Shown: positions 17,308-63,964, numbered from the stretch's first letter. The stretch: DNA of 64,000 bases from Azolla caroliniana (GCA_043228905.1 JBHGNT010000015.1:2480001-2544000); one strand, 5' to 3'. Program-made: numbers and translations. Notes: generated by a model from the sequence alone, not told the origin.

Positions 17308-17508
17308 CGCGTGGATTCCGCAACCACACAGCAAAGCCGCGAAGAAAGACGCAAGTCGAAGCACAGACTTCGCAACTACGCACAACGCAAGCTGGAGCAC
17401 GGATTCCACAACTCCGCATAAATTCGAGTTGACACGAACTCCGGAATGCAAGTCGAAGCGGATTTCGGATACCGTCTAAAACCGACCCGACTTGAGCTTG
17501 AGGGGGCG

Positions 17509-17811: not shown

Positions 17812-17850
<39 letters not shown>

Positions 17851-17908
17851 CACACACATAACTCATATCTCTTCCGCTTCACAAGAATCCATCTCTTGAT
17901 TCTTTACA
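17509..17908 (+). repeat. 3' LTR of copia-2
   Basis: TGTTGAGAATCAAGCTC... matches 7474 onward; preceded by PPT GAGGGGGCG; ends TTTACA. Confidence 0.88.
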
Positions 17909-23740: not shown

Positions 23741-24785
23741 AACGAAATTGGCTATATATGGGATTCTTATCGAGTATAGGTACAAGATTTGTCAATATTC
23801 TACTAGTGATACCACCGTCCATAGCTTAACTCGAGCAAACTCTTTATAAATAATTTGAGTCCTTGTGGTCCAACCCTTACAATAATCATTGAAGGTCTTA
23901 TCCTATATTTAAAATTCTCCAATCGACAGTTTAACTTGAGTCAATTCCTCATGACCACTCGAATCCTAACAATCAAACACTTTGAAAAACGTTGGATCGA
24001 CTTGATATAATCACCTCGATTACATGTGTATTGTGGTCATTGGGACTCAAATCCTTCTCCTATTGAAAATATATCTCAATAAGAAGAAAAAAAAACCCTT
24101 GTTTTTTTTTTTACTCATACTTCCCAATTAACTACAAAAATGATCTGTTTTGCTCATACTTTCTAATAACTACAAAAATGGCCGCAAAATGTGTTCATAG
24201 ATTCTAATAATTGCAAACGTGGGATTCAGAGAGACAGAGAGAGAAGGAGCCCTTCCATCGCCATAGCCCGAGCCACAGTTTCTGCAATCGCCCATCTTGC
24301 TGCCACTTCAAAGAAGAAGATGTTACACTCTGTGTGGAAACCCTAGAGACCGGTTCATTAGCCTTGCCTGAAGACTCAATCAAGGTTTTCATTGAAAAGA
24401 ACATCGATCGAGCTTCTACAATGCCGATAATTTTTTCTCTTCAAAGGGCAAGGTGAGATCTTTCTGGATTTTTCCACTCTTGTTCATGAAAGGACAGAAA
24501 GAGAAAAAAAAATCTGACCTAGATCGGTCAGATGAGGTGTGTTGAGGGAAAGAGGAAAGAGAGATAGATGGATAGGGTCTGTTTCCCCATTTTATCCATT
24601 TCTCTGCAAAAAGAGAAAATATCTGACTTAATTGTATAGATGAGCTGAGAGAGGAAGGCCTGGACAGAGAGATTACTTTTGCCTTGGATCGGTTGTATGA
24701 GCTGAGAGATAAGAGAGGAGATAGATAGAAAGTGACAGGAGATATATAGGCAGAGGTAGGGCTATATATATTTGTTTTTTTGAGG

Positions 24786-27700: not shown

Positions 27701-30700
27701 TAAAGGTAACAATATCTTGCAAAGGTGTTAGAACTAAAAATCCTACTACAATCAGAACCATAATAGGCATGTGCAGTTTGGAATTGGGATGGGATAGTCT
27801 CCACCCTTTACTTCTTTTCTCAAGCATATCCTGCTAAATCCATACAATTCTGAAACCATAATTAGAGCTGCATCAGGAAGTTCTTCATTATTCATGCTGA
27901 ACTCCAAAGCTTAAAGGTAACAATATCTTGCAAAGGTGTTAGAACTAAAAATCCTACTACAATCAGAACCATAATAGGCATGTGCAGTTTGGAATTGGGA
28001 TGGGATAGTCTCCACCCTTTACTTCTTTTCTCAAGCATATCCTGCTAAATCCATACAATTCTGAGACCATAATTAGAGCTGCATCAGGAAGTTCTTCATT
28101 ATTCATGCTGAACTCCAAAGCTTAAAGGTAACAATATCTTGCAAAGGTGTTAGAACTAAAAATCCTACTACAATCAGAACCATAATAGGCATGTGCAGTT
28201 TGGAATTGGGATGGGATAGTCTCCACCCTTTACTTCTTTTCTCAAGCATATCCTGCTAAATCCATACAATTCTGAAACCATAATTAGAGCTGCATCAGGA
28301 AGTTCTTCATTATTCATGCTGAACTCCAAAGCTTAAAGGTAACAATATCTTGCAAAGGTGTTAGAACTAAAAATCCTACTACAATCAGAACCATAATAGG
28401 CATGTGCAGTTTGGAATTGGGATGGGATAGTCTCCACCCTTTACTTCTTTTCTCAAGCATATCCTGCTAAATCCATACAATTCTGAAACCATAATTAGAG
28501 CTGCATCAGGAAGTTCTTCATTATTCATGCTGAACTCCAAAGCTTAAAGGTAACAATATCTTGCAAAGGTGTTAGAACTAAAAATCCTACTACAATCAGA
28601 ACCATAATAGGCATGTGCAGTTTGGAATTGGGATGGGATAGTCTCCACCCTTTACTTCTTTTCTCAAGCATATCCTGCTAAATCCATACAATTCTGAAAC
28701 CATAATTAGAGCTGCATCAGGAAGTTCTTCATTATTCATGCTGAACTCCAAAGCTTAAAGGTAACAATATCTTGCAAAGGTGTTAGAACTAAAAATCCTA
28801 CTACAATCAGAACCATAATAGGCATGTGCAGTTTGGAATTGGGATGGGATAGTCTCCACCCTTTACTTCTTTTCTCAAGCATATCCTGCTAAATCCATAC
28901 AATTCTGAAACCATAATTAGAGCTGCATCAGGAAGTTCTTCATTATTCATGCTGAACTCCAAAGCTTAAAGGTAACAATATCTTGCAAAGGTGTTAGAAC
29001 TAAAAATCCTACTACAATCAGAACCATAATAGGCATGTGCAGTTTGGAATTGGGATGGGATAGTCTCCACCCTTTACTTCTTTTCTCAAGCATATCCTGC
29101 TAAATCCATACAATTCTGAGACCATAATTAGAGCTGCATCAGGAAGTTCTTCATTATTCATGCTGAACTCCAAAGCTTAAAGGTAACAATATCTTGCAAA
29201 GGTGTTAGAACTAAAAATCCTACTACAATCAGAACCATAATAGGCATGTGCAGTTTGGAATTGGGATGGGATAGTCTCCACCCTTTACTTCTTTTCTCAA
29301 GCATATCCTGCTAAATCCATACAATTCTGAAACCATAATTAGAGCTGCATCAGGAAGTTCTTCATTATTCATGCTGAACTCCAAAGCTTAAAGGTAACAA
29401 TATCTTGCAAAGGTGTTAGAACTAAAAATCCTACTACAATCAGAACCATAATAGGCATGTGCAGTTTGGAATTGGGATGGGATAGTCTCCACCCTTTACT
29501 TCTTTTCTCAAGCATATCCTGCTAAATCCATACAATTCTGAAACCATAATTAGAGCTGCATCAGGAAGTTCTTCATTATTCATGCTGAACTCCAAAGCTT
29601 AAAGGTAACAATATCTTGCAAAGGTGTTAGAACTAAAAATCCTACTACAATCAGAACCATAATAGGCATGTGCAGTTTGGAATTGGGATGGGATAGTCTC
29701 CACCCTTTACTTCTTTTCTCAAGCATATCCTGCTAAATCCATACAATTCTGAAACCATAATTAGAGCTGCATCAGGAAGTTCTTCATTATTCATGCTGAA
29801 CTCCAAAGCTTAAAGGTAACAATATCTTGCAAAGGTGTTAGAACTAAAAATCCTACTACAATCAGAACCATAATAGGCATGTGCAGTTTGGAATTGGGAT
29901 GGGATAGTCTCCACCCTTTACTTCTTTTCTCAAGCATATCCTGCTAAATCCATACAATTCTGAAACCATAATTAGAGCTGCATCAGGAAGTTCTTCATTA
30001 TTCATGCTGAACTCCAAAGCTTAAAGGTAACAATATCTTGCATTATTTAAAAGCTTTCTTGAGTTTCAGGTAATTTCAAGGAAATATATGGGACTTTCAA
30101 TGTGTGTGTGTGCCTGAACTGATCAATCTTTAACATTGTATGGTATTTCCATATATTCCATGGAGTTGATTAAATGCTTTAGTGCATACACAAATATTTT
30201 TATGCACATATCAAGAATTATTTTTATGATCTGCCCAATCTGTGAGAACCTTCAAAATTGCTATTTCATACACTCGAATTAGCAGGTTATCATGGACACT
30301 TATTGGGTTATACTGGAGAGATGAGTTAATGAAAATTGAGACCCAGACCCCTGAAGAGGATAAATAGCTCCCTTTATTTTTCATGAAGATCACGCCTAGT
30401 ATCTCCACCATGCATACATTCCAAAGTAACATGCTCTTCTGGTATTTTGAGGTGACATTGGTCACAAACTTTTCTTTTTCTGCTCAATAAGAAAAGGTCA
30501 GAGAGCTCAAACATGATAGCAAAGTCAATCTAATTAGTGAGGATGATTGTGTTATTATAGTGATGAATTATTATGTCTTATCATTCATTTGATGATGAAT
30601 ACAATTATTAACATTTACGGGCTCATTTAAAGACATTTTACTGTATTCTAGTTGGATTTCAGACAATAAAACTCACTTCTGCATTCCAACTCTAGGATTT

Positions 30701-34975: not shown

Positions 34976-37900
34976 CTAGGTGTCCTCTATTAAAGAATCC
35001 TCCCCAACCCCTACATTCGGTGTAGTATCTGGCTTTTCAGCATGCTCTTTAATGACAATATTGCTTTGGTTCTGAGACGGCATCTTAATTTCTTCAGCTT
35101 TGTTCATATGGCTAGGTGGCGGTCTAGGTACTTTAAGCAATCCAGGACCTTTGCTCAAAAGGAGAGGAGTGTTTGTACTCCGTGACGCAAGTAGATTTTT
35201 TACATTGGGAGAATTCATTGTTACAAAACATCCTCTCTCTTTTGCATCTGCAATGAGGGCGGCCCAATCCTCAGACTGCGCTAGTGCTGCAGCATTACCA
35301 ATAACCTGTCACAAATCATAAACAATAAAAAAGGTCATCAATAAGTGTGTATGTGAGGTATCATTTGAAATGTAATACTAACGACAAATACTTAAAGAAG
35401 CAAAAAAAAATGCACACAAAGGCGTGCTAAATATTTATAAAGTAAACGATATGAATAAATCAAGTATGCACACTTTTTTTGCAATGTATAATATTACTGC
35501 TGGGGAAATCTCAAAGTGAGGTGAAAATCAACAGAATATTTATGCTATGTAAAATTAAAAATATTAAAAACATACTACAGTACACGCATATATAAACAAC
35601 GAGCTCACACGCCTATTTTAACTTTTAAAGAAACCAGATACAATAATGATAAAGAGCATACCCAAAGGCATCGTCGAGCTCGTGTGAGAGCAACATTCAT
35701 CCTTCTTATATCAGCTACAAAACCCACTCCATGGCCAGATGCTCGGACACAAGACATTATCATAATGTCTCTCTCTTGTCCTTGATATGCATCAACTGTA
35801 TTGATATAGACCTTCTCAACATCAGCTCCGACCACACAACCAAATTCCTGCTGTAGGCACCTCAATTGCAGTTTGTAAGGAGTGATGACACCCACAGAAA
35901 CTTTACCCATTCCTGCTGACTTTATAAAGTTTTGCAAATGCTCATATAACCGAGCCGCAAAATGGGCTTCCGTGGTATTCTGATAAGAGACAGAGTTTCC
36001 CTTATGAGATTCTCTCCCATGGCTTACATCATAAAATATGTAAGGCCTTAAGAGAGCATCTTGATGGTAAGGCTCATCTGGCATAGATGAAACACTATCA
36101 CTATCCACAAGACGTCCTTGGTAGAAATAACGGGATGGGAAATCTCTTATCTGAGGATGCATGCGATACTGAACTGACAAAAGCAATGTAGGGCAACCAC
36201 CTTGCTGAAATCGTTCAAATAAGCTCCGACTATACTGTAATGTATGCGCAGCTCGACTTATAACAGTGGCTGGCAACTGTTGAGGATCGCCTATCAACAC
36301 ACATCGTGCTGCTCCTAAGCCCAATGGTGTTAAAATTGCTGCTTCACTTGCTTGGGCTGCTTCATCAATCACAACCATATCAAAACCATGAGTAAGGTGG
36401 TTGAATAGACGACGACCACTACTTGAAACTGTTGTAAACACAATCTCGGCTTCATTTGCAAAGCTTGCCTCGAGCTTCATGCGAGCATCCTCTAAAGAGC
36501 ATCCACCTCGCAAGCGGCTATCAACAATGTACAAACGAGACATCTCCACCAGCACTTTGTCTCTTTCTTCCACAATCGCTGCTAGCTGCTGCAACTTGGT
36601 ATCACGGGAATGATCTCTAGCAGAGAGAACATCTGGATCTACACCCACTGAGCCCTGCCCTCGAGCTGCTGCAGCTGCTGCTAATTCCTTCTGCAATGAC
36701 GCAACTTGTTGGGCCAAAAATAATTCTCTTGAACGAAGCTGTTGTAACCAGCCGACAACATCATCTTTAGACATTCCTAAGAGGTTATCTGACCTCCGTT
36801 CCACTGACACAGCTTGGGATGCCCTTGTTTGAGTATCAACACCCACCCGAGCAATGTCAGGCCTATACACTTTCATCTCTCCATCTATGAAGCCCCTTTC
36901 TAAAACCCTTGTTAGCAACTCATCAGTTGCAGCATTTGAGGGGGCACATACTAGCATTCTCGGTTTTGGGCACAACTTTGGAAGAATCCTTGCCAAGTTG
37001 CGATCCATTTTCTGCAAAACATCATCTAAACTGCCGCTCTGAATTGAGATGCTTTCTTCTATCTCCTCCGACTTGAGACTGTCTGGTGCAAGCTTCTTCA
37101 GCAATGCTGCATAATACCTTTGATATTGCACAAGATGTATTACGTTAAGCATACCCCAAACCGTATGTGTTTTACCAGTGCCAGGGGGGCCTTGAACAAG
37201 GGTGAAAGGCCATGAATCCTGGCGCTTCCCAGTTACGGTGGTATTGTGTGAACCGGATGCTGTATGCATTGCTGCCCATTTAATGGCTCCAAGCTGTGGG
37301 TTATTAAAATGCCTATGAAGATGTTGATGAAATGGTGGTGTAAAACATTCGGGCATTGCAGGGGGTTCTTCCTCATACCGAGGAAAAAATTCTGGTTTAG
37401 GGTTTAGTATAGCTTTGATCATCTGCATATTATATATTGAAACTTCAGCTGATGAGGATGACAACAGGGAATCAGAGAGAAATGGTAACAATGATGTGAC
37501 AAGTAACCTGTGATTGAAGGTTCTGGAAAGCATGCAATGCTACATATTCACGCTGGGTTGTTGCAAGAGACCCAAGAACTGTCAAATACCATGTCGTCCC
37601 CTTCGCTTGAAATTTTTTAATGATCACTTCTTCACTAATTTGGCTGCCAAGTAGACCCTTCGTAAGAATGAATTGTGAGTCAAGCCATAAAACTTACATC
37701 TCTAAGAAAACTTTACCAACACATACCTTTCACCTACATAGAAGCGAAGTGTAGCTCCATGTAAGTCTCTTGTATCAATAGGTATATATCGTCGAACAAT
37801 ACCAGCAGTACGGCTTGATATATCTGCTTCATTAACACTTGAACCATTGGTTCTTTTCATTCTAATGCCTGACAAAATTGACAGTAAGTTTCATGGAAAG

Positions 37901-40875
37901 ATCAGTAAAACTGATCTGCATGTACTTTTATGTGGAATGACAAGTTCGGTTATTATTGCAGGTATTATATTAACATCAACAAGATAAATGGCTTATACCT
38001 GCACCAGGCTTTGGAGTTGATACAACTGCAACATCTCCCTCTTTAAACCCTAATTTCGTTTGACTATCTAACGGTAGAACCACCAGATCATACCATCCTT
38101 AAAAATAGACATGCAAAGCAAACAATATTTAGTTCACTGATATCCACATTTTGAAGGACTAAAAGGTAATTTTCTTTTACCTCTTTCACGCCTTTCTACG
38201 CTCTTTACACACACTTGAATATGTGGGTCCTTGGCGACTCCCTCACACAATTCTTCCCATGTGCTGAGCAACTGTGCTCTACACTCTTCGAAGAGGAGGG
38301 GCTCAAATACATTCACATACTCTTGTACAGAGTCAAAATTACCAGGAACACATTGAAGTTCCGCCTCACCTGTGCCACAAAAACATTAACATAGAATTAA
38401 TAAATAAAAAAACGAAGTGATCACTTCCACTAAACTGGTGGAGTTCACGCACACCTGCACAAATCTCAAATTTTAAAAATCAATAGAAACACAAAGAAGG
38501 CATGATGTTTCTGCATCTGATAGATTCTGTAGCCATGTCTAGCATCAGATTATTGTGCGTAAGTACAAAAACCAGTTGTTCAAGTGCTCCAAATAGAAAA
38601 GAAGTGTTCAACAATATCACTGCCACAGTCCATGACCAAAAGCTTCACATTAATGAGTCGAGATTTGTTATCTGTGGTTACTTAACAAATTACCTATGTT
38701 CATCAAGATAAATTACATTATTATCTAAGAGTAGTGTCCAGAATCACTCTAAACAACAATTGCTCAAGAGATGCCCAGATTTAGGATTCTAAAACAACAA
38801 ACGCCCTCAGAAGCCTATTTAACACTCTAAATAATAGTTAGTCTTTAAAATTCGGTTTGAACCCCTCACAAAAACACATATAATGAGCAACGCTGATTCC
38901 CAAGCTCATTTAAGAGCTTAGTTATTTGTGGACAACTAACACAAATGGATGTCAAAGTACCTAGTTCTGGAATGATGATACACTGGAGAAAAAGCTCACA
39001 CTCTGCTCCCCCAGTGAATTTCATCTTGAAATGCTCAATATTCATCATGAGCTTCAACATACAATCATCTTGACACACTGGAAAAAAAGTGCTCGTTGGA
39101 AAGTTCAAACAGAAATCCAAGTATCAACACAAGACTCGTACTACCCCTAAAAATCACCAGATAAAACTGTCTTCACCAGTTTCTGGAAAATCAAGCTCCA
39201 CTTTCTGTTATGCCTTCTGACTCCGCTGATAATCATAGATAATTCAGAAGATTTGCCGAACAAATTGTTCCACTGGATGCTGTTCATGCAGCACCACCAG
39301 TGTAAGAGAAAATTATTTTTCCCATCCATATGTAATTGTAATTTGTCCCTTACCCTTATTTACAATTATCAGACTTGAAAAAGGGAAAGGAATATATTCA
39401 AAGAGGATTTCTCTTCAAAATACTAACCAGATGGCTTCCACAGTTTGTCACAAGTTGCCTCCCGATGAAGTCGCTCTATGGAAGAGTCTTGAGAATATGT
39501 TGTCACTTGTTTCCTGAAAGGGGTTGGATTTTTCTTTGGAGTAGGAGACCTAGCAAAGCTCGAAAGTTTCTCATCCAACTTTCCCTGTGCAAGATACTTT
39601 ACCACAGCAGTTTTAATTGGTTGAGAACCTTTTACTTTATCCTCTACATCTTGTTTCCCACTATTTTGTCTTCCAACTATCGTAGAAGAAGATCCTTCAG
39701 ACATGGAAGGCTGTGATACTAATGCACCATCAGAACCAATATCTGACAGTGGAAAGGCATTAGATTTCATTTCTGACGGGCTTGCACTGTTTAACATTCC
39801 ACTTGTCGCATTCAAATTCCTTGAATCTTTCAATCTAGGATCAATTGTTAGTGGAGGAACGACTGGAGTTTTGGGTGTATCTTTGTTACCTCTAGAAGTG
39901 GCTCCAGCGCTTTTTTTCACACTAGGAATCTTTGGTGGGGCTGCTTGTTTAGCAGCCTCCCGAACATCTAGAAACATAGTTTGCCTATTACGCTTTTTGC
40001 CCAACATCGCATCTTTCTGATCCAGTCTTCCTCTCTTTCCAAAACTTGTTGAAAATTTGGTTTCAGTAGAGAATTGATTGCCTTTAGACGGATCTACTTT
40101 GAGAGCATTGTCAATGGCTGATACTATACTAAGATTGGTTCTATTATTTTCTGTGTCTCTAGAAGATTGGTTTGCTACATTAGCATTTACAGAACTTTGC
40201 GGAGATGTTTCTTTATTGCTGAACTTATTTGAAGCTCTTTCAGAGTCACATCCATCTGAAACAATTAGCAAATAATCAAAATGCATCCCTAAATACAAAC
40301 CTATAGATTTAAGGATATTGTAAAAGGATAGAGGCATAACAACCTCCAGGTTGCATAGATCCAAAGCTTTTATGACCATTGCTATGCATATCAAGCTCCT
40401 TTTCTTCCAACTCCAGTTCCGATGGACAACTTGAAGGCTTCGATGTTTTATCCACATCACCATTTTGAACTGGCTTAAACACCATATCAGATGAAGTATA
40501 ATCAGCAATGTCTTTTTTATCATTATAATTACCAGAGTGAACCTCATCTTTGGAGGAAATAGGTTCGTTCGTACTTGCTCCTTTGGGCATTACCCTTACG
40601 AATGGACGGAAACACGATAAAGGATGTTGTCCAAGAGCAGGTGGCGCTTCAGCCAATGATGATGATGTTGATGTTGATGATAGTGATTGATCATATGCTT
40701 CTGCTTTTGAAAGAAAACTTCTATTATTAAACTGAGCTTGTGACTCCTTTGAAGGATGCATGAACCTAGATCCCACCTCAGTAAGAGGAGGTTCACATGC
40801 ATTTTGTGATGACATATCTGGATCATCTTCCGGTATTTCATTTAAATCAAACATTACTCTCCCTTTGTTCTCCAT
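34976..40875 (-). CDS. SF1 Upf1/SEN1 (DNA2/NAM7)-family RNA/DNA helicase, senataxin/MAA3-like, ~1338 aa, 8 coding exons
   Basis: Exons 40875-40344, 40255-39428, 38369-38181, 38097-37999, 37868-37727, 37643-37508, 37422-35662, 35305-34976, all GT-AG and in phase. Motifs QGPPGTGKT, VCAPSNAATDEL, VIDEAAQ, GDPQQLP, QYRMHP, VITPYK.Q, TVDAYQGQE, RMNVALTRAR, VIGNA. Confidence 0.92.
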
Positions 40876-41965
40876 TCTTCTTGTATTAAATAAGATAGAA
40901 GAGAAAGCATCGATTTCAGCCAACAGATCTCAACTTGTCTAAATTGAAAATTATTCTTCTTTTGGACCCCATTACTTTTGGATTCAAAAAGATCAAATAA
41001 TGAGCACCAATTTCACCCATAAAGCTACTTCATGTGTATCTTGTTATGTCAAGGAACTATCAGATCGGGCAAATAAGACCAGAATTGACAAAATTCTGCA
41101 CCATTTGGTTGACAGCACAATAACCCAGTTTTACTGAAACCTTCCTGCCCTGGAGAAGAAGAAAAAAAAGCACCTGTCACACCCTCTGATCGCCAATCAA
41201 CGGATAAAAAATTCATTCCATCAATCCATTCCACTTCTTCTTCTTTTTCTTCTTCTTCATCCCAATACTACTTCATATAGCATCCTCGGATCAAATACCA
41301 CTTCACACATGTACAGTCATCAGATCCCAATATACAACTTCATATACAATTACATGTATAAAGAAGATACCACTTCATACATCTACATACATATGCAGTC
41401 ACAAGATCCCATTATAACTTCATATGCATATACATGTACAAATAAGTGCACCCCTTCATAATACATATACACATGCATTCAAAATACCATTTTAAACGCA
41501 GACATGTGCAGTAACATTTCATGTGCATGTACAATAATAACACTTGTAACTTCATACACATACACATATACACGCCCTCCTAACACGGCCCATCCAATGG
41601 AGGAGCGAAAAGATTCCGACACACACACACAACAAATATATGTATAATACACACAGGTATATAAAAATGAAGGGGAAATTTCAGGCAATCGAAATTGAGA
41701 AGCAAAAAAGGGAGGCAATCAAAAACTAGAGGGTAATAGACAAACCTGATATATGTATAGACAGGGGAGGAGGGGGGCAGGGAGGGAGGAGGAGGTGAAG
41801 CTACTCCAGAGTTAGGGTTAGGGCAGAGTAGGAGGAGGGGGGGCGGCAGGGGCAGCAGCTGCAGGTCTACTCTGTTTCTTTGTGTGTGTGTGTGTGTGTG
41901 TGTTAGAGAGAGAGAGAGAGAGGGAGAGAGAGAGAGAGAGAGAAAGGGGAGGGGGGGTGTGGTCC

Positions 41966-45073: not shown

Positions 45074-45137
<64 letters not shown>
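45074..45137. repeat. (GA)n microsatellite
   Basis: About 32 GA units. Confidence 0.95.
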
Positions 45138-45139
<2 letters not shown>

Positions 45140-46055
45140 TCTACTTCTCACAGTTCGAAAAGCCATCATCTACCTCTGTGACTCAAAAATACCATCCTCC
45201 ACAGTTACCAAACCTAGTTTTGCCATTCTATTAAACTCTGACTTTAAACTGTCTTTGCTTGGATATGGTCAGATTTGGCAAGCAATAGTACAATTGCCTA
45301 TTTTATCATCACCGATTCCACAATTGGTGGTGGTGGAACCGTGGAAGGTTGGTTATTTGCAATTAACACTAATGATGTTTACCGTAGGTTGGTTAAGGAT
45401 AGAGTTTGGGTACAGAGCAAGGTTTTGGATACATGTCACATTATCCGTGGAAGTGAATGGTGTGTTAGAGTTTTAGATGCAAGATGAAAGTCTCATATTC
45501 CTTTCTGTGCAAAGATATTTTTTTGGCGTGCTATGGTTGGTGGGTTACCTTTGGCTATGACATTAAAACGAAGACACATTGATAGTGGTACAACGATTGA
45601 TGAAGATTCTCGACATAGGTTTATATCTTGCCATGTTACTAAAAGTATATGGATAGTTATATTACAACTGTGGGGGTCATTGACTGGAAGTGTTTTGTCA
45701 CCTTTTCAATGGGTTTTCATTGAAGGTGATAGAGTTTTACCATCCCCAACGTATAAGTTTGTGTTTGATTATTTGAGGTACTTGGGCATGTGGTATATTT
45801 GGAACTTGCGGAATGGTTTCTTATTTGATGGGCTTTCTGGAGTATCTCAATAGATATGAGGATAAGAGGAAAGTTGATTTGGCAGTTTTCACAATTATGT
45901 TGTATGGGAACTTTGTCCCCTAACGAGTTACATTTGTGTTGTTTTGTATTGCATCACCTTAGAAGGTTGCCCTTGCCACATCGCTACTTTTGAAGTAGTT
46001 TTGATATCAAGGTTTTTTTTGTATTGTCATGTTGTTTTAATATAAACATACATTT

Positions 46056-46059
<4 letters not shown>
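45137..46059 (+). mobile_element. 5'-truncated, 5'-inverted L1-type LINE (ORF2 C-terminus)
   Basis: Forward part from 45252: LLGYGQIWQ...FFWRAMVGGLPL...EDSRHRFISC...FDYLRYLGMWYIWNLRNGFLFD, paralogous to 51030-51785. Segment 45137-45253 is the adjacent upstream ORF2 sequence in reverse orientation. Confidence 0.85.
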
Positions 46060-46108
<49 letters not shown>

Positions 46109-46434
46109 GAGAGGAAAAAACGCAAGAGTGGAGAAGGGAAGAAGAAGCGAATTTGTTTTTATTGTTGCTCTCTCTATCGATAACAGAATTGAGCACAAAG
46201 ACAAGCGTTGGAAAGCCCTCGAGTAGAGCTTCTCAACGAGATATAGCAAGTTGAATTTGGCCATTTGTACGAGATGCAGCGATAGCAATAAGGAATCTTG
46301 TGTTGTCGACATCCACATACTCAAAACTCATTGTGGGTCTTCGATTGCTTTCAAAATCTTCGACCTCTTCAATCGGGTGAGTTCTGATTTTCTCTCTTGT
46401 TCATGGAAAATTGTTTTTATCCCGGATCGATATA

Positions 46435-47948
46435 ATGATGGACATAAACATGAATTCCTCACAAATTGTGGGGGATATTGATATGGAAACAATCAATCCA
46501 AAAAAGAGTAATGTGATGGTTGAATGTAATCGTGAAAGGGAAGACATTGGAAGCTCTAAGAGGTTTAAGGGAATTGAAGAAATCAATGAGAAAAAATTAA
46601 CATATGCCGAAATAATACTTGTAGATGAAGTTGACAAGGATCACAGTAATTGGGATAATTTATGGGGAATTGCCAATACCTTATTGTCGGATATTGTGGA
46701 AGAAAATGAAAATGCAGCGAAAAGCGAAAGAATGCATTGAAGAGTATGTGCATGATGTGGAAGTTGATACTAAGGCAGTTTTGCAATCATTTGATGTATT
46801 CTATGATCGTGCTGTTATATTATTTTTTACCGGAAAACTCCCATATGTTAATTGGATTAAACAATGGTTGAACACAATCGTGTCACCAAATTGTGTTGAA
46901 AATATATATGCGGGACCACGAGGGTTTTATGATGTGGTATTTCGTTCACTGGAGCATCGAAGTGCATTGTTGGGTAAAGTTCTTGTGTTTTTTGATAAAC
47001 GATTGGTGCATGTTATGCAATGGTCCCCCGTAGTGGACTATCATGCTTTGTTAAAACAAGAATGACTTGTTTGGGTTACAGTGGATTGTAAGCATGCTTT
47101 TTTATGGCCACTTTTACCAGAGTTGATGAGTCAAATGGGTAAAGTGTTGGTATCTCCACATGCAAATGCTACAAATAAGTGTAGATTTTGTGTGTTATGG
47201 GATACAAGTCACAAGAGGTCAGGATGGGTGGGTATGAATGCTCCCGGTATGAGAAGTCTTTGTTTTAAACTGAAGTGGGAGACATTTGCAAGTCATTGTT
47301 TTGGATGTGGTGAATGGGGTCACTTTATGGCGGAATGCCACGGTCATTGTCCTTCAACTACAGAGGTTCCTATTGAAGGGAACGATAAGGAAGGAGTTGG
47401 GAGAGATGTTGGTGTTTCAGATTTTGTGGATGAAGGAACATCACCTAGATCAGGTTATAAAGAGGTCTCACTTCAAGGTTTGGGCCCTAAGAATAAGGGA
47501 ATTGAATCTATGGATATGGAAAAACAAAGTTTAGTGGTTAAAGATAAGGGGAAAAAACCGTTGGATAGAGCTAGTAGTGATGTTGTTGACAAAGATTGGC
47601 ATGAGGTTAAGGGCAAGTCGAAAGGGAAATCAATGAATATGCAGCGTAGTAGCTTGCCCACTACTCGTGTGGCAAGGTAATTCAAGAACTAGGGAGGGCC
47701 CTCGAAAAGTTCCTTGGCAACGACAATATAGGGATAAGGGATTACCCCTTCACCTTCAATTTGATTTATTGGGACGAGTTGTAAATTCTTCGAATTCTCG
47801 AGGTTTTCGTCAAGCGGGAGGACCTAAAAAAAAGATTTCGATAGACAACCCTAAGGATGTGGTGCATGAAAATCCATATGCAGCATTGGAGCATGCTTTG
47901 ACTAGTTTCATGACATCGGTTGCTCTAAAGGAGCAAGTGCTCCCATAA
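46435..47948 (+). pseudogene. LINE ORF1 (DUF4283-like RRM region plus zinc knuckle), disrupted
   Basis: AVILFFTG...WIKQW...GPRGFYDVVF...MQWSP; CFGCGEWGHFMAEC; stops and frameshifts. Confidence 0.75.
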
Positions 47949-47961
47949 CATTGTTGATTGA

Positions 47962-50900
47962 ATGAAAGTGGTAAAATGGAATGTGAGAGGGGCATGTTCT
48001 CCTCATAAGAAGTATATACTATGGGAAACTTTGTTAAGTAGAGAATGGGATGTAGTAGGTGCAGTTGAGCATAAGTGTCATGAGTTAGCAGGATCCACAA
48101 TGCATTTGCGTGGATATTCATCATTTTATGCAGGACATCTTAATAATCATTATTCAGGTGTGGTATTAATCGTGAGGGATAAGTATTATCCTCAAGTGGT
48201 GCATAATGATCCTTATGGTCGGTTTTTGGTTCTAGAAATCACTTTTTTTGGCAAGGTTGTGTGGGTGGTTGGGATTTATGCCCCTAACCAAGCCACTTAT
48301 GGGGTTCACTCCTTCAAACCCTATCTATTGGACGTCCAGGATTACTTATGGGCGATTTTAACATGTGTGTTGATGCATTTCAATCTACGTCTGAACATTC
48401 AATCATGGATGATCCTGAGTAACTTGCTTGGGACTCATTGGCTATGGAGGTTTTGAAGTTGGATGTTTGGACATAGTTGCAAGGGAATAATCCAGGTTTT
48501 ACCTTCCAATCTTCTCAACATAGACAAACATGGAGTCGGTTAGATAGAATGTATGTGATGCATGATGATTCTTTTTTATCGACATCACTTCGTATGAACG
48601 TTCTACAAGATGTTGGAACTTCAGATCACTTTCCTATTTGCTTGGAGGTGTGTAATCATGCAATTGACATGTATAAATCTTTACTTGGAAAGCCTCCACT
48701 ACGCTTTAACTCTTCTCTTTTGCTTTAACCTCACTTTGATTCTCTCATGGAGCAAATTTTGGTAAATTTTTCTCAACAAGTGAATCTTAAAGGAGTTAAA
48801 GCATGGGATATCACATTACGAAACATTAACATCATTCATCGTATGTATGGAGTAACCAATGCTCAACGAAGAAGAGGTCTTATTCGACAATTCTCACAAG
48901 TTCTCTCTAGGTGTAATGCATTATTGATACATACACCATTAGATGAGGAGCTTTTGGATATTCAGAGTCAATTGCATGGTATTATTTCTCAGTTGCAATG
49001 CCAAAGTTATCGTTATGCTAAGATGCGACAACTCAAGGAAGGACTCATTGATAATCAATGTCAATCTCATTTGTTTTTCCAAGCATTACATCCTACTTAT
49101 GCTCGATCTAATGTGGTACATGTGAAGCAAGGGGATGAATTGATAGTGGATCCTACAACAATAATTGACATATGTCTTCATTACTTTAAGGAGTTGATTG
49201 GTCCACAATTGTTAATGACAGATGAGGTGAGTAGAGCACGTCATGAGTTTTATGATGTGGTTGGATGTATTGTGCATGATCTCATTAGTCATGAATTGGA
49301 TGCAGATTTCACTGAGGATGAGGTGGATGTAGTTTTAAGGCATCTTCCTAGTGGTAAGAGCCCTGGTTGGGATGACTTGACAAATGAAGTTTTTAAGAGA
49401 TATTCCAACATTTTAAAGGGGCCCTTGACTTTGATTTTTCAACATTCTTGGGATTCTGGTTGTATGCCTCAAGCTTGGAAGATTGGTCTAATTAAACTAG
49501 TTCCAAAGGTGGCATCTCCTAAGTCATTTCATCAATGGAGACCTATTTCTTTGATGGGGGGGTTGTACAAGATATTTACGAAGGTCTTGGCAAATAGATT
49601 ACAAAAGTATTTGCCAAAGTTGATACACCCCGCCCAATATGGTTTTATTGCAGGTAGAAATATATTGCATAATGTGTTGAATGTTCAAATGGCCATGGAT
49701 TATGCTCGGAACACTCATCAAGAATTGATTATGGTGCAATTAGATTTGGAGAAAGCTTATGATCATGTTAATTGGTCTTTTGTTGCTGGGTTAATGCATA
49801 CAATGGGCTTTGGACCTCGTATGTCTTGCCTCATCTTTTTATTAGGACAAGATGTAGTGTCTCGAGTAATGCTTAATGGGTGAGTTACATCAGATATTGC
49901 CCTCACAAGATCCGTTTGTCAAGGATGCCCTCTTAACCCATTATTGTTTGCTATTGTTACTCATCCTTTGTTAGTGATGCTATCAAGACTTGCAATAAAT
50001 GGTGACATTGTGGGTTTACACCTTCCGTCCGGAGGGCAAATAGTAGCACAAGCTTTGGCGGATGATTCTTTCATGTTTGTACAAGCCTCACAGAAGAATC
50101 TTGAGAAGGGGATGCTTGTATGGAATCAGTTTGCATTGGCTTCCGGATTACATATTAATTGGAGGAAGTCTAGTCTCATATCATGCACTGAAAGGGATTT
50201 GGAATGTTTGGGATGGCAAGGATCCGTGGTGAAGAAAGGCTCTATTTTTCGACACTTGGGCTATCCATTAGGAATGAATGTTACAAATGGTCAATTGATT
50301 GAATGGATGTCTAGTAAGTTGAGGGATAAGTTCATGTATTGGAAGTCACAATCTTGGCCATTTCATGTTTGCTTGAAGGTTGTACAATGTATTATGGAAC
50401 CCATGATATTATATTACTTGCCATTATTGCCATGGACAAAGAAGGCGTTGAATTCTGTTTTGCAACCTCTTCGATATTTGTTGTGGAAGAAGAGGGATAA
50501 GATGGGAATCACATGGATTGCTTGGAATCATCTACCAACCCCGAAGCGATTGGGGGGTGGGGTTGGAATATTGAACTTATCTATGCATATGATGGCTCGT
50601 AGATTTTCATTATTACAAGACATGTGTTCAAACTCACAACCATGGATATCTATTGTTCGATATTTCATTGAGAACAAGGGTTTAACACATGGGAGGACAA
50701 CGATTAAGGCTTCATGGTGGCAATTACTGAATGGATGTATTTCACTTAGGATTCCGGGTTCTTCATGTGTTCAACACTTAGTTACCTCATGGCAAGAAGC
50801 ACTCTTGTTATGTGTATGGAAACCATCATCTAATAGAGAGCATTGTAACTCTTTGCAAAAAGAGTTACTTGTGTCTTCTCGGTTATTATGTTGGCCAGGA

Positions 50901-51785
50901 AAGGAGAGATTACGTTCTCAATTTAATCGTTTGTTTTGTTTGGGGGTCAAAGAGGTGGGAGATATAGTTGAGGTTCCATCTCAAAGAATTTTGGAGTTTA
51001 CTAAAGCACGACAATTATTACGCATCCCGCCTAATTATGGGTTTATTTGGCAACAACTACAGAATATTGCATTGATGCAAGGTCCCTTACCTCTACAAAC
51101 AGGAGAACGACCGTGGATTGATTGGAGTTTAAGGGGTCAAACACCATTGTTACAAGTGACTACTAATCTTTTGTATCATTGTTCCGTTGAGTCTCTTGGA
51201 TGGTTATCATCTAAGGCTGAAGAAGAATGGAAAATACACAAATCTGATCATGGGTGGTGGCAGATCTTACAACGTAGTTGGCATTCTAAATTGCCACATG
51301 TTGCAAAGGTATTCATTTGAAGAGTTTTGATCGGAGGATTGCCTTTGGGATTAGCTTTAAAGCGTCGTGGACTAGTAACGGGTACCTGCTTCTTTTGCAC
51401 AGTTAAGATAGAAGATAATACTCATCGATTTATACAATGTCCAATTGTTTGTCAAATTTGGAGTTACATTTCTCAAATTTGGCAAGTTTTATCACGGAGT
51501 TATTTGACACCTAGACAATGGGTGTTTGCACAATTTACATAGGCTGACCCAAAATCAGAGATGGAGATTGTTTTCCTATTTCTGAGATATTGGGGATTGC
51601 GTCATAATTGGAACATGCGCAACGCTTTTGTATTCGATGATAGACATGGAGTGAAAGCATATCTACGAAAGTTGAAGGGAGTACTAATGTGGCAATTTTC
51701 TTTATTGGAACAAGTGGAAATTCTTTCCTCGGTGGAGTGTTCGTCCTGCCTATTGGCAATTCAACATGTTCCACTACCCATGTAG
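47962..51785 (+). pseudogene. LINE ORF2 (APE endonuclease, RT, zf-RVT), disrupted
   Basis: MKVVKWNVRG, GIYAPN, GDFN, SRLDRMY, SDHFPI; KSPGWD, WRPISL, QLDLEKAYDHVNW, QGCPL, LADDS, HLGYPLG; CFFC...EDNTHRFIQC. Confidence 0.9.
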
Positions 51786-51880
51786 TGTAGTGTGGTTAGT
51801 GTGTGACCATACTCCATTGTCACACGTATTGTAAGTAGTGTTTTTCACACACATTTATTAATATAATTGTGTGTTTTCAC

Positions 51881-51930
<50 letters not shown>

Positions 51931-52320
51931 CAAATCTCCAATAGTATTAGAATTCTTATTACAAATGGTGTACCTTTATGGGATGGGTTTACATGTAGAA
52001 ATCACAACAATAATATAGTGTGATTGATTATATGTTGTTTTCATATAGTATTTGGGATCACATACATAAAATTTCACTTTGACATTGGAATCCACAATTG
52101 GATCATATGACCTTATGAATTGATCATAAATGAATATTAACTTAACTACCTAGGAAGTTAATTGGTAATGTTTGCACACCCAATAGAAAGCATATGCATG
52201 TTGTAAATTTAGGAGACACGCACAAGGTGAACGGAAATGAAACTCATAAATAGTGGTCAAGCATTTCTATTACAATCATAATGTAACACCACCCTATGAC
52301 CACGATGGCATATCACTTAT

Positions 52321-57580: not shown

Positions 57581-57968
57581 GACTCATAGACGTGTCCAAA
57601 AGCATTTGTTATGAATTTTCTTCAAGTTAAGATACACACGCCATACATCTTGAGACTCTCACTTTCCATGATGATTATGAGCATCGAAATGTTGTGGACC
57701 ATATGCTTAAGGTTTAAAATGAAATGAAAATTTGTAGTATCGTTTTGGAAACAAGTAAAAAATTCAAAAAGATACACAAAAAGGCCAAACGATCGAGTTC
57801 AAGATGCATGGAAGAGATGACAAAAGGTAAGTCTGAATAATGGATGAATTACACTTGCTTTATGATGCACCAATATATTCTTTTGCAATTGAAGTTTTTT
57901 TTATGCCAACATATCATGACTTAGGAAATATGTGGAATCTCATGTTCCACATGATATATTACATATTT

Positions 57969-58630
57969 TGTTAAACACAGTGCTCGGCCACAACCGAGGA
58001 ATAGGATCAACTCCCAGAAAACAGGAAATACAAAATACACGAAGACAACAGAGAGAAAGGTACACAGGATGTTTTGCGTGGAAAACCCTAAATGGGAAAA
58101 AACCACGGGAGTCCTCAAACTCCAACTATCACTATAAACAGAGATGTACAATGGTGAAGCTACAAGGCAACAACCTTGAGCTCACTGTCTTCGCCACAGG
58201 CGGCGGCAATACACAGAGGCGTCGACCTCTTCCTTTCTCTCTCTTTCTCTCTCGGCTGCTCTCACTTCGCTCCCTCGGCTGAAAACATAAAATGAGCAAC
58301 AACATCTAAACTGTTTGCCCTAAGTCATATTTATACACATATGACTTTCGGGCTATTTACAAATATAGCCTCAAGGGCCCTTGGCAAACATATTCACAAA
58401 TATGTCCCCGCATCCGGATCTCTCTCCGGGTACATTCGTCATCCGGCTCCGTAGCCGGGGTCTTCAGCATCCGGCTCCGTAGCCGGGGTCTTCATCATCC
58501 GGATCCGTAGCCGGGTACTCTTCATCCGGCTTCATGCCGGGTACTCTTCATCATCCGGTTCCGTAACCGCAACCGGGCTTGCCGTCATTCATCTCCGGAC
58601 ATCCCATCCGGAGGGACCGAGATCCCAACA
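57969..58630 (-). repeat. 3' LTR of copia-3
   Basis: TG...CA termini; adjacent to the PPT. Confidence 0.97.
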
Positions 58631-58640
58631 AACTCCCCCT

Positions 58641-61600
58641 TCACTTCGGCATGGGATGTCTCTCCAATCCGATCCTCTTCCGGCATGCTTCCAGCTTGTC
58701 GGGTGTGAGCACCTTGGTCAGCATATCCGACCCGTTCTCGTCCGTGTGGATCTTCGTCAGTGCGAACTCCTTGTCTTCTATCCTTTCCCGGATCCAGTGG
58801 TATCTACGCTGGATGTGTTTCGTCCGGGAATGGTAGGCCGCGTTCTTCGCAAGGTGGATGGCACTCTGACTATCGCAGTAGAGCCGGTACTCCTCCTGCC
58901 GGATACCGAGCTCTCTAATGAAGTCCTTCATCCATATTATTTCCTTGCCGGCTTCAACAGCCGCCATGTACTCCGCCTCCGTGGTTGACAACGCAACCGT
59001 CTTCTGCAATCTCGACTGCCACGAAACGGCTCCCCCTGCATATGTCATTACATACCCTGATGTAGACCGGCTGGTATCCGCATCAGCCGACATGTCCGAA
59101 TCGGTAAAACCATCGAGTTCGGGCTTACCGGAGCCGAATCGGAGGCACATGTTCGAAGTGCCCTTTAAGTATCGGAGTATCCATTTGACCGCGTTCCAGT
59201 GCTCCTTGCCGGGATTACTCATATACCGGCTCACCACTCCGACTGCGTATCCAATGTCCGGTCGGGTACACACCATTGCGTACATCAAGCTCCCGACGGC
59301 AGAGGCATATGGTATCTTCATCATATCCTCCTTTTCAACTTTTGTCTTGGGACTTTGCTTGCCGGATAACTTGCAGTTTGCCGGGAGGGTCGACCCGACC
59401 GGTCTTGCTTCCGACATGTTGAACCGGTGAAGCACCTTTGTCACGTACTTCTCCTGTGACAGCCACAACTGCTTCTTCTTCCGGTCCCGGATGATGTGCA
59501 TCCCTAGTATTTGCCTCGCCGGACCCAGGTCCTTCATTGAGAAAGTTCGGTGAAGCGCTTTCTTCAGCATCCGTATCTTGGCCTGGTCCCGTCCGACGAT
59601 CAACATGTCGTCCACGTACAGGAGGAGTATTAGAAAGTCTCCTCCTTCAAACTTCTTCACAAACACGCAGTGATCGGACTGCGTTTTGTGGTACCCTTCG
59701 TCGGTCATGAAAGAGTCGAACTTCCAGTACCATTGCCGGGGAGCCTGCTTTAGTCCGTAAAGGCTCTTCTTCAACCGGCACACCAGGTGCTCCTTCCCTT
59801 TCTTCTCGAATCCTTCTGGTTGCTGCATGTAGATCTCTTCTTCGAGGTCACCGTGAAGGAATGCCGTCTTCACGTCCATCTGTTCTACCTCGAGGTCCAT
59901 GCTTGCCGCTATGCTCAGCACCGTTCGGATGGAGGTCATCTTCACTACCGGGGCAAATATCTCGTCGAAGTCGACGCCCTTCTTCTGCTGGAACCCCTTC
60001 ACCACGATCCTGGCTTTGTATCTCGGGGGGTTTCCGGCATCTCCCGGTTTCAGCTTGAACACCCACTTGTTTCGAAGTGCCCGCTTTCCTTTCGGCAACT
60101 CCACAAGTTCATATGTGTGGTTCTCATGCAGGGAATCCATCTCCTCCTGCATGGCACTTAACCACCTGCGGCTATGTGTGTCAAGCTTTGCTTCTTCAAA
60201 ACTCTCCGGCTCCCCCTCGTCAGTTAGCAGCACGTGCTCTGGTTCCGGAAATCTCCGGGGGGCCCTTCTCTCTCTTAGAGGATATCTCCGCTCCGGAGCT
60301 TCGGTAACCGGCTCCTCCGTTTCCTCTCCATCCGAATCCATTTCGGGATCGGGGCCGGTTCCGGTATCAGTTTCATCTTCCTCGGCCGGTTCTGTTTCTT
60401 CACCGTCTTCGGCCGGATCCTCGAGTGCTAACCGGTCCCTTGCCGGTCGGGACTGCTCCTCGTAGAGTTGATTCTCACCGGTCGACTTGGAGTTCTTCAA
60501 CTTCTTCTCCGACTCCCAGTCGGCGAGTGTCTTGTCCTCCATGAAGATGATATCACGACTCCGGAATATCTTTTTGTCGACCGGGTCCCATACTCGGTAG
60601 CCGAACTCGTCATCGCCGTAACCGAGGAATATGCATGGCCGGGTCTTTGGATCTAGCTTTCCTCTCCGGTCCTTTGCCACATGCACATATGTGAGACACC
60701 CGAACACCTTCAGATGCCGGTAGGATACTTCCCTACCGGTCCACACTCTCTGCGGCGTGTCTCCGTCCAAAGGCACTGAGGGTGATCTGTTTATCACGTA
60801 TGTCGCCGTCGACATTGCCTCAGCCCAAAATCCCTTGGGTAATTTCGCATGCGCCAGCATACTCCGGACCCTCTCCATTATGGTCCGGTTCATCCTCTCG
60901 GCCAGCCCGTTCAGTTCCGGCGTCTTCGGCACAGTAAACTCGAGCCGGATTCCCTTCGAGCGACAGTACTCCTCGAACTGCCCCCGGTATTCCCCTCCGT
61001 TATCCGCTTGTATCGCTTTCAGCTTCTTGCCGGATTCTCTTTCCACTCTCGCGTGGAGTTCTTTGAAGACGGACAATACTTGGTCCTTTGTCTTCAACGG
61101 TGCCGTCCACAGCTTCCGGCTATGGTCATCTATGAATGTTACGAAGTACTGGGCTCCGCCATGTGACTTCGTTTCTACCTGACACACATCAGTGTGTACC
61201 AACTCCAATGGTACAATACGTCTCATCGGTGGTCTTGAGCGGAAGGAGGTCCGGTTTTGCTTACCGGCCAGACAGTCGGTACACTTCCCCAGTTGTACGT
61301 GCTTTACCGGTATCAGGTTGTCTTCGGCAAGCCTCTTCATCCCCTTCTCGCTCATGTGGCACAGTCTCTTGTGCCACAGCTCACCGGTAGTGTCAGCTGC
61401 CACGTTCAGCTCCTCCGGACATAGCCGGGAATTCATCAGGTACAATGTGTTGACCTTCCGGGCCCGAGCCACTATCAGGCTCCCTTTGCTGAACTTCATG
61501 ACACCGTTCCGGATGCTACCCGTGTAGCCTTCATCGTCTAGCCTGCCGGCCGAAATCAGGTTCAATCGAACCTCCGGAACGTGTCGAACATCCTTCAGCA

Positions 61601-62714
61601 GCATCTTGCATCCGGTTGATGTCATCAGCCACACGTCTCCTATGCCGGCAATCCGGCATGTACCTTCATTTCCCATCCGGACACAGCCGTGCTCACCGGC
61701 TGTGTAGGATGAGAAGTATTTCTTCTCCGGGGTCAAGTGGAACGACGCTCCGGAATCGACCACCCAGGTCATCTCTTCACCGGCAAGGTTCAGCTCCCTC
61801 TCTTCGGTAATGAGCATTATCTCTTCTTCACTTGCCGCGAGTGCCATCGTTCCTTTCCGGTCCTGCCCTCGCCGATCCGGACCTCTCCGGTCCGTGGCTC
61901 CCCGGTATGCACCGTTTCTCTCCGGTGACTTCTTCGAATCGGTGTCGTCGGCTCCGTTGTCCTTTCGGTAATGCCGACAATTCTTCCGGAAGTGCCCCGG
62001 CTTCCCACAGTGGAAGCATGTGGGTCTTCCTCTTGACTGCGACCGGGTCCCCGACTTCTCCCGTCTTTGCGGACTCCGGTTCCATTGTCTTCCCCGTTCC
62101 GATTCGGTAAGCAGCGCCTTCGAGTCGGAGGCTGGTTCTTTATCTCTCCGACGCGCTTCTTCGTTCAAAATACTTGTCTTTACCGTTTGTAGGGACAAGT
62201 TATCTTCGGTGCAGGAGGTGCTGAGAGTCACCACCAAGTTCTCCCAGCTTTCCGGCAATGTACACATCAGAATGATGGCTTGCATTGCATCCTCCAACGG
62301 GAACTTGATCGCCGCAAGCTGGTTCACGAATCCCATGAACGTGCTTACGTGTTCCACCATACTCTCGCTGTCCCGGTACTTGAGGTTCACTATCTTCCTC
62401 ATCAGGGAGGTCCGGTTCAACGCATTCTTCCTCTCGTAGAGGCCCGACAGCTTCCGCCACATCTCATATGCGTTGGTGTCGTTCGCCACATGTTGTAGAA
62501 CACTTACATCGACATATTGCCGGATCGTCGCTACGGCTTTCCGGTTCAGGAGCTTCCACTCCGACTCTATTACTCCCTTGGGTATCTCGGCATTGTCGAT
62601 CGGTTCGTACAGGTCTCGGACGATGAGAAGGTCTTCCATCTTTATCTTCCAGTCGGCGTAGTTCTGTGAGTTCAACACCATCATGCCCGGAGGCCCACTA
62701 CCGCCGCCTTCCAT
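58641..62714 (-). CDS. Ty1/copia gag-pol polyprotein, 1357 aa (Tnt1-like)
   Basis: CFHCGKPGHFRKNC; WVVDSGASFH; WHKRLCH; HTDVC...ADNGGEY...GLAERMNRT; QMDVKTAFL, LLYVDDML; FTDSD...EAEY...CDSQSA...SDMLTK. No stops. Confidence 0.97.
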   Translation of the reverse strand: MEGGGSGPPGMMVLNSQNYADWKIKMEDLLIVRDLYEPIDNAEIPKGVIESEWKLLNRKAVATIRQYVDVSVLQHVANDTNAYEMWRKLSGLYERKNALNRTSLMRKIVNLKYRDSESMVEHVSTFMGFVNQLAAIKFPLEDAMQAIILMCTLPESWENLVVTLSTSCTEDNLSLQTVKTSILNEEARRRDKEPASDSKALLTESERGRQWNRSPQRREKSGTRSQSRGRPTCFHCGKPGHFRKNCRHYRKDNGADDTDSKKSPERNGAYRGATDRRGPDRRGQDRKGTMALAASEEEIMLITEERELNLAGEEMTWVVDSGASFHLTPEKKYFSSYTAGEHGCVRMGNEGTCRIAGIGDVWLMTSTGCKMLLKDVRHVPEVRLNLISAGRLDDEGYTGSIRNGVMKFSKGSLIVARARKVNTLYLMNSRLCPEELNVAADTTGELWHKRLCHMSEKGMKRLAEDNLIPVKHVQLGKCTDCLAGKQNRTSFRSRPPMRRIVPLELVHTDVCQVETKSHGGAQYFVTFIDDHSRKLWTAPLKTKDQVLSVFKELHARVERESGKKLKAIQADNGGEYRGQFEEYCRSKGIRLEFTVPKTPELNGLAERMNRTIMERVRSMLAHAKLPKGFWAEAMSTATYVINRSPSVPLDGDTPQRVWTGREVSYRHLKVFGCLTYVHVAKDRRGKLDPKTRPCIFLGYGDDEFGYRVWDPVDKKIFRSRDIIFMEDKTLADWESEKKLKNSKSTGENQLYEEQSRPARDRLALEDPAEDGEETEPAEEDETDTGTGPDPEMDSDGEETEEPVTEAPERRYPLRERRAPRRFPEPEHVLLTDEGEPESFEEAKLDTHSRRWLSAMQEEMDSLHENHTYELVELPKGKRALRNKWVFKLKPGDAGNPPRYKARIVVKGFQQKKGVDFDEIFAPVVKMTSIRTVLSIAASMDLEVEQMDVKTAFLHGDLEEEIYMQQPEGFEKKGKEHLVCRLKKSLYGLKQAPRQWYWKFDSFMTDEGYHKTQSDHCVFVKKFEGGDFLILLLYVDDMLIVGRDQAKIRMLKKALHRTFSMKDLGPARQILGMHIIRDRKKKQLWLSQEKYVTKVLHRFNMSEARPVGSTLPANCKLSGKQSPKTKVEKEDMMKIPYASAVGSLMYAMVCTRPDIGYAVGVVSRYMSNPGKEHWNAVKWILRYLKGTSNMCLRFGSGKPELDGFTDSDMSADADTSRSTSGYVMTYAGGAVSWQSRLQKTVALSTTEAEYMAAVEAGKEIIWMKDFIRELGIRQEEYRLYCDSQSAIHLAKNAAYHSRTKHIQRRYHWIRERIEDKEFALTKIHTDENGSDMLTKVLTPDKLEACRKRIGLERHPMPK

Positions 62715-62730
62715 TTTCTGTGTTAACCGT

Positions 62731-62742
62731 GCTCTGATACCA
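62731..62742 (-). promoter_or_regulatory. Primer binding site (tRNA-iMet) of copia-3
   Basis: TGGTATCAGAGC on the minus strand, 3 nt from the LTR. Confidence 0.95.
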
Positions 62743-62745
62743 CTT

Positions 62746-63407
62746 TGTTAAACACAATGCTCGGCCACAACCGAGGAATAGGATCAACTCCCAGAAAACA
62801 GGAAATACAAAATACACGAAGACAACAGAGAGAAAGGTACACAGGATGTTTTGCGTGGAAAACCCTAAATGGGAAAAAACCACGGGAGTCCTCAAACTCC
62901 AACTATCACTATAAACAGAGATGTACAATGGTGAAGCTACAAGGCAACAACCTTGAGCTCACTGTCTTCGCCACAGGCGGCGGCAATACACAGAGGCGTC
63001 GACCTCTTCCTTTCTCTCTCTTTCTCTCTCGGCTGCTCTCACTTCGCTCCCTCGGCTGAAAACATAAAATGAGCAACAACATCTAAACTGTTTGCCCTAA
63101 GTCATATTTATACACATATGACTTTCGGGCTATTTACAAATATAGCCTCAAGGGCCCTTGGCAAACATATTCACAAATATGTCCCCGCATCCGGATCTCT
63201 CTCCGGGTACATTCGTCATCCGGCTCCGTAGCCGGGGTCTTCAGCATCCGGCTCCGTAGCCGGGGTCTTCATCATCCGGATCCGTAGCCGGGTACTCTTC
63301 ATCCGGCTTCATGCCGGGTACTCTTCATCATCCGGTTCCGTAACCGCAACCGGGCTTGCCGTCATTCATCTCCGGACATCCCATCCGGAGGGACCGAGAT
63401 CCCAACA
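62746..63407 (-). repeat. 5' LTR of copia-3
   Basis: Near-identical to 57969-58630. Confidence 0.97.
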
Positions 63408-63964
63408 TATTTTACATCAAACGACAAAACCATATTTTTCTTTAAATGGGAAAACCAGATATAACCACACATGTTAGAGCTCATTTCTTTGTCCACCATC
63501 CTCACCATTGCTTCCATTTGATGTAAGATGGGGATGTTACAGTATAGGTGAAGAGATTCACCAACTATGCATTTACTTCGAGAGTCCGAGTATCACACTC
63601 AATTACAATGCCCCACCTTGGATAACACTTTAGTTTGCTTTCACCATGTTGCTAATATGCACAATCTTCATTCTCAATCACACTTTTTTTTTGTAAAAAG
63701 TCTTGACCACTAAGAGTTGCTACTCACATCCACGGATATTATGTAAAACATGGTCTACTTTTGGTTCCATAATCCATATTTGATATTCGAGGATGATAAT
63801 AAATCTATTTATACATCTCTTTTATAGTAATTGTCTTACTTACTATGATGAGCTATTATGCTATCAACACGAGGTTATGAATATAAATGAGCTTACAATC
63901 TCCACATAGTTAATATAACCTTCACATAGAACTAGGTCCACATTTAGTTAATATAAATGAGGTC

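Follow-up and report, generated by a model that had tools for sequence, protein, structure and literature searches.

Waldo, a member of the R1 clade, is a microsatellite-specific APE-type LINE of animals. In the Tx1 clade, which is likewise described as one found in animals, Kibi and Koshi of teleosts and the crocodilian Tx1-1_Crp group are APE-type LINEs that sit in (TC)n, (TTC)n and (TTCC)n/(TTTC)n repeats, and a family there counts as target-specific when this applies to more than 20% of its flanks (passages of PMC4494074). According to a passage of PMC4640811, target-specific APE LINEs are known from these two animal groups, Tx1 and R1. Among angiosperms, the SaTar/TAFTA MULEs are microsatellite-targeted, stack head to tail and expand their tracts (PMC5907723, in the part consulted). 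Plant L1 elements are characterised by an ORF1 of the DUF4283 type (excerpt of PMC5203782) and by an A-tail (excerpt of PMC3747384), and human L1 recognises poly(T)-A junctions, with the hairpin loop of its endonuclease (EN) shaping target choice (excerpt of PMC1950540). For ferns, the Ceratopteris repeat table of PMC6890710 lists 23,635 'L1-Tx1' elements, and no target analysis accompanies it in that part of the paper. Our literature search for a microsatellite-targeting plant or fern LINE returned none; Repbase and subscription journals lay outside its coverage, and Repbase may list one.

Here, we analysed a stretch of 64,000 nucleotides from Azolla caroliniana (GCA_043228905.1 JBHGNT010000015.1:2480001-2544000), hereafter the window, in which a first-pass annotation had recognised two related but clearly diverged LINEs, head to tail, with a (GA)n tract at each of three boundaries. 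The pair is confirmed, as elements A (45138-46059) and B (46114-51883) run in the same orientation and share 33-44% protein identity in the C-terminal part (tblastx E 7e-40), and the three tracts lie exactly where they had been placed. The features of the locus are the following.

45074..45137, plus strand: (GA)32 tract, 5' flank and putative target of element A
45136..45256, minus strand: element A, 5' segment in inverted orientation (97% to L021 by blastn, reverse match)
45260..46058, plus strand: element A, decayed forward part comprising the zf-RVT-bearing C-terminus of ORF2 and the 3' UTR
46060..46113, plus strand: (GA)27 tract with one interruption, boundary between A and B
46114..51881, plus strand: element B, a full-length LINE interrupted by stops and frameshifts; belongs to a second subfamily
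46381..47948, plus strand: ORF1 remnant of B, broken, DUF4283-like with zinc knuckle
47962..51785, plus strand: ORF2 remnant of B, broken, with APE endonuclease, RT and zf-RVT
51847..51874, plus strand: RNA hairpin predicted at the 3' terminus of B-type elements (z -3.6 for B)
51884..51925, plus strand: (GA)21 tract, 3' flank of B
51925..51931, plus strand: GT-TCTAC behind the 3' tract, echoing AC-TCTAC at 45138-45144

Absent from the first-pass annotation was the inverted start of element A, a piece of ~120 nt (family positions -558 to -678, counted from the C-terminal motif) that is the reverse complement of family sequence just 5' of the point where the forward part resumes. An inverted 5' piece is the form expected of twin priming, a process established for L1, and this twin-primed copy adjoins the 5' GA tract directly. 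Its forward part is 92-96% identical to L007 and L021 and has the terminus TTTACG. Element B is 97% identical to L030 across its 3' 1.6 kb and terminates in TTTTCACC, then AA; the DUF4283 match of its ORF1 (E 0.0055) falls below cut-off, and intact relatives exist. In the remainder of the window, (GA)4 is found within 25 nt by chance at a rate of 0.6%. On balance, A seems to have arrived first, by twin priming, with B then entering A's 3' tract. The TCTAC echo is no more than suggestive of a remnant of A's target-site duplication, its score ranking at p about 0.04 in a set of 240 cross pairs and being one of 16 tests. Under one reading, A would have duplicated the end of an existing tract, TCTAC would be the priming microhomology, and B would later have entered A's 3' tract; under the other, the left-hand letters are family sequence with one change, and the match arose by chance.

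Elsewhere in the window, nested LTR elements occupy 672-17878 (pairs 672-1123/6016-6466, 7474-7830/17509-17878 and 9556-10212/15919-16587), where two LTR types carry (TC)n tracts of their own, with no LINE inside them. A DENND6-like host gene at 24750-26636 (+) has its closest named proteins in Adiantum nelumboides (72%) and Ceratopteris (70%), with mosses and lycophytes at about 58-62% full-length, which marks the host as a fern. This is followed by a 211-bp unit repeated 13 times at 99% identity (27294-30042), a senataxin/Upf1-type helicase gene with AAA_11 and AAA_12 (35605-40929, -), and a young copia-type element (57967-63407) with 664-bp LTRs 99.8% identical and a single open 1368-aa ORF on the minus strand. 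A non-coding repeat (300-500 bp, unclassified) lies at 63405-63820 (-) and recurs at L032:5752-6226, L060:39-313, L020 and L025; it often starts just past GA or GATA-like tracts, and in four loci it stands beside LINE ends.

For a wider sample, 15 family proteins were aligned and converted into a degenerate DNA motif for a conserved C-terminal stretch ~300 nt before the 3' end, which within the window matches only A and B and in a scan of metagenome contigs gave 69 related loci. As the motif contains no flank, the sample was not selected for GA. All 69 loci are short-read contigs, the high-coverage ones being collapsed consensus paths, and the family contigs look like a single set of related assemblies. 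The 3' end could be scored in 51 of the 69 (18 fall short of the terminus); the doubtful L039 and L040 were retained among these as misses, and three ends that stop within the tract may be duplicates. From the 5' analysis 30 loci were dropped (20 start inside the element, six are internally rearranged and four are duplicates), leaving 10 full-length and 29 truncated loci, the latter yielding 30 truncated junctions with a second fragment in L066, all curated by eye against longer copies. As background served 90,643 non-LINE flank positions in related contigs, at 0.6% of which (GA)4 occurs within 25 nt. The motif had no matches in viral contigs, where a profile scan gave four distant loci (25-28% identity) that were left unused, and prokaryote genomes scanned for the family gave none either. 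In aligned run contigs (5,690-11,916 per run) the family is present in organisms coded A-E, with depth increasing toward the 3' end; the contig-divergence rows listed (24 of several thousand) are without GA, one of these analyses passed over the terminus repeat, and the rows are uninformative on flanks.

At the 3' ends, (GA)4 lies on the sense strand no more than 25 nt from the terminus in 28 of 51 cases and (TC)4 in none, against the background of 0.6% (binomial p 1e-48). The terminus is fixed within each subfamily and is followed by 1-12 A and then the tract (24 ends counted); an A-run of varying length behind a constant terminus is consistent with a poly(A) that was copied and then linked to target DNA. 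Consequently, the first-pass description of 3' ends lacking poly(A) suits A and B, with only 1-2 A before their tracts, and not the family. Most of the remaining ends continue into A- or GAAA-rich sequence. GA ends are found in seven of the nine subfamily bins with more than one member (DNA identity between bin centres mostly 50-74%), and since they extend across subfamilies as distant as about 50%, the habit looks ancestral. The A-type subfamily has GA at 9/9 ends, and the L057/L047 and L014 types have 3' ends without it (three ends). A conserved 3' hairpin was considered as a family-wide signal and rejected: the prediction is good only in B, L030 and L011 and weak in L063, with z below -2 in 4/19 ends and above -1.5 in most other subfamilies. 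Separately, coverage over the final ~50 nt of B-type elements is far deeper than over the body (L030:1866-1880), with many contigs diverging just upstream; numerous very short stubs, or a SINE with the same tail, may account for this. In L024 (oriented 4045-4076), a 32-nt stub lies inside the GA tract that follows an A-type copy.

At the 5' side, the 5' UTR of nine of the ten full-length copies (the exception being L057) is immediately preceded by a GA tract, beyond which the sequence is different and unrelated in each. Among the 30 truncated junctions, (GA)4 is found within 25 nt in ten, (TC)17 in one and neither in 19 (Fisher p 0.006 for the strand bias of GA versus TC). The ten GA-bearing junctions represent ten different truncation points, each separated from the end of its tract by 0-12 nt, and a LINE 3' end lies upstream of the tract in only one (L016). 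Six element bodies that were checked contain no (GA)4; hence the tracts at truncated junctions were not supplied by the element. Arrangements that would reflect the stacking of copies in tracts occur in the window and in L016, L024 and L026. At low coverage (<4x), GA is present at 8 of 19 truncated junctions, comprising 7/12 in copies that have a relative at 90% identity or more versus 1/7 in older ones; the lower rate in the latter would fit later damage hiding the true junctions. In the seven low-coverage copies with both ends, (GA)4 is at both in one, at the 3' end only in two, at the 5' end only in two and at neither in two. For target-site duplications, 4/16 copies give p 0.01-0.06 when compared with a cross-pair null, and none remains significant after correction.

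Taken together, copies of a fern two-ORF lineage of the L1 superfamily adjoin sense-strand (GA)n on their 5' and 3' sides some fifty to ninety times above chance, and almost always in one orientation, which is likely due to a preference of the APE for nicking (TC)n. The first-pass annotation had regarded (GA)n as a landing site, and a comparison of flanks with background (55% of 3' ends and 33% of truncated 5' junctions versus 0.6%) bears this out: GA at 3' ends and 5' junctions, with none in the element body, supports a landing site and not only a tail. Its expectation of 5'-flanking GA in most copies applies to the full-length ones (9/10) and does not extend to truncated junctions (10/30), and sequence specificity amounts to a strong preference that is not strict, 20/30 truncated junctions being without GA; GAAA-rich and ordinary L1-like sites are evidently used as well, and the preference is relaxed. 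As to mechanism, the observed position and orientation of the tracts suggest that the APE would first nick the (TC)n strand of a GA microsatellite, whereupon the nick-derived primer would pair with the start of the RNA's short poly(A) tail. Reverse transcription would then give the observed order of terminus, 1-12 A and target GA, with truncation and inversion seen among the products. A second nick, made slightly further along, would leave GA at the 5' side, sometimes together with bases past the tract. Because each insertion leaves tract on both sides, later copies of any subfamily could stack head to tail.

There is also a hint that the LINE family propagates GA repeats. The 5' tract of L060 adjoins a repeat at a point where L032's copy of that repeat has no tract, and with this contrast full-length copies may bring GA along. 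A wider proposal, which we put forward only tentatively, is that of an old and still intact fern L1 lineage whose microsatellite homing is independent of animal Tx1 and R1 and which both seeks and spreads (GA)n, starting transcription in the upstream tract, leaving tract on either side of every copy, making its own landing sites in this way and being a main source of GA microsatellites in these ferns.

Alternatively, targeting may be guided by RNA, the transcript carrying GA from read-through downstream and starting within the upstream tract, pairing with nicked (TC)n and seeding new tracts, with the endonuclease itself having just a bias for purine/pyrimidine tracts. The excess of GA at 3' ends (55%) over truncated 5' ends (33%) would agree with this, as would L020 and L037, where GA is at the 3' end only, and the L060 tract that lacks a counterpart in the homologous repeat copy. 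Moreover, the sole opposite-orientation case, (TC)17 directly before the truncation point in L024 (oriented 1-38), may be a GA tail left by an element that inserted on the opposite strand, at a site without GA. Even so, we think this alternative unlikely, for a variable-length A-run separates terminus from tract, L052, which lies at a site without GA, carries a GA-free A-tail and a likely duplication of 14 nt, GA before truncation points is beyond the reach of a tail alone, and the 3'-only cases can be secondary junctions, three of them ending in ACA, which we take to resemble LTR ends. More improbable still is an absence of targeting, with ordinary L1 insertion at fragile or open purine-rich sites or microsatellite breaks and GA arising later by slippage of the A-tail: purines make up 80% or more of 47/51 3' flanks, a good number of these being GAAA-rich, many 5' junctions are without GA, and the 3'-end tracts exceed control tracts in length (median 20.5 versus 11 nt), but slippage in the tail leaves 5' GA at ten different truncation points unexplained, and insertions at breaks would take either orientation, against an observed GA:TC of 28:0 and 10:1. 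Lastly, an assembly artefact, in which short-read contigs were joined via GA repeats, is very improbable despite the loci being such contigs, some at 20-85x and with visible chimeras (L032), because GA is retained in 8/19 low-coverage junctions, a mis-join already requires GA beside LINE sequence in the reads, and the window shows identical anatomy.

Intact ORF2s have Exo_endo_phos, RVT_1 and zf-RVT above cut-off in 3/3, and the best solved-structure match of the family EN/RT is human L1 ORF2p (E 2.5e-55). Intact ORF1s have DUF4283 in 3/5 (one above cut-off) and zf-CCHC in 5/5 (four above), and both ORFs are open in at least eight contigs. In the intact copies L011, L014, L042, L044, L048, L057 and L066, the start of ORF2 and the stop codon of ORF1 overlap, suggestive of coupled termination and re-initiation; B and L058 have a short gap instead. 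Further hallmarks of the L1 superfamily are the oligo(A), the 30 truncated junctions, and inversions in window A and L061. The closest named relatives are Adiantum proteins (46-55%), and a search of representative proteins for labelled relatives added none. In a quick ML tree of the RT (89 rows, 13 dropped for span, with no labelled Tx1 and no R1 RT), the family groups with five Adiantum proteins (SH-aLRT 99) as sister to Ceratopteris rows (99) and falls outside the seed-plant L1 clade (99); deep nodes are weak, and two Oryzias proteins of unassigned clade lie far from the family. The first-pass annotation had proposed an L1/Tx1-like family; the tree and the plant-type ORF1 both favour an L1 lineage of ferns, and the domain and L1 matches argue against membership of the R1 clade. 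In an alignment with the EN of human L1, the catalytic residues of the family's APE correspond. The EN hairpin loop, QS.Q[YH]..TW, is conserved in seven family proteins and one Adiantum protein, its sequence differing in all other rows listed; the loop may be what reads GA/TC. Loop length was discarded as a sign of Tx1, as seed-plant L1s share the same length.

If true, a (GA)n-preferring fern L1 lineage would be a separate plant origin of target specificity. With its intact ORFs and a preference that is strong in the A-type (9/9 ends) and weak or absent in the types of L057 and L014, it would provide a natural series for an EN shift from T-tracts to (TC)n. It would also bear on the source of fern microsatellites, and fern GA markers may often sit in LINE ends.

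Compared with the systems described above, the fern family exceeds the 20% of flanks given in the passages of PMC4494074, at 28/51 3' ends, 10/30 truncated 5' and 9/10 full-length 5' junctions. It resembles Kibi and Koshi as an APE-type LINE in pyrimidine/purine microsatellites, but these are animal elements, whereas the fern family has a DUF4283/zf-CCHC ORF1 and its own RT clade (in a tree with no labelled Tx1). Kibi's target is written (TC)n, which may denote either strand, and the sense-strand flank of the fern family is (GA)n; the family probably works like fish Kibi and is of separate origin. The SaTar/TAFTA elements are, in the part of their description consulted, non-autonomous DNA transposons mostly in TA or mixed tracts, while the fern family is a retrotransposon. 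With the seed-plant L1 lineages ME1-3 it shares two ORFs, an ORF1 of the DUF4283 type, an APE-RT-zf-RVT ORF2, an A-tail, 5' truncation and inversion, though seed-plant L1s form a separate clade (SH-aLRT 99) with a different EN loop, and the literature passages concerned report no microsatellite preference for them. Human LINE-1 aligns with the family in EN and RT and has in common with it the oligo(A) end, the twin-priming inversion and a purine-rich sense-strand target that implies a pyrimidine-strand nick; in the fern family, however, the run is (TC)n, and the EN loop is one residue longer and of other sequence.
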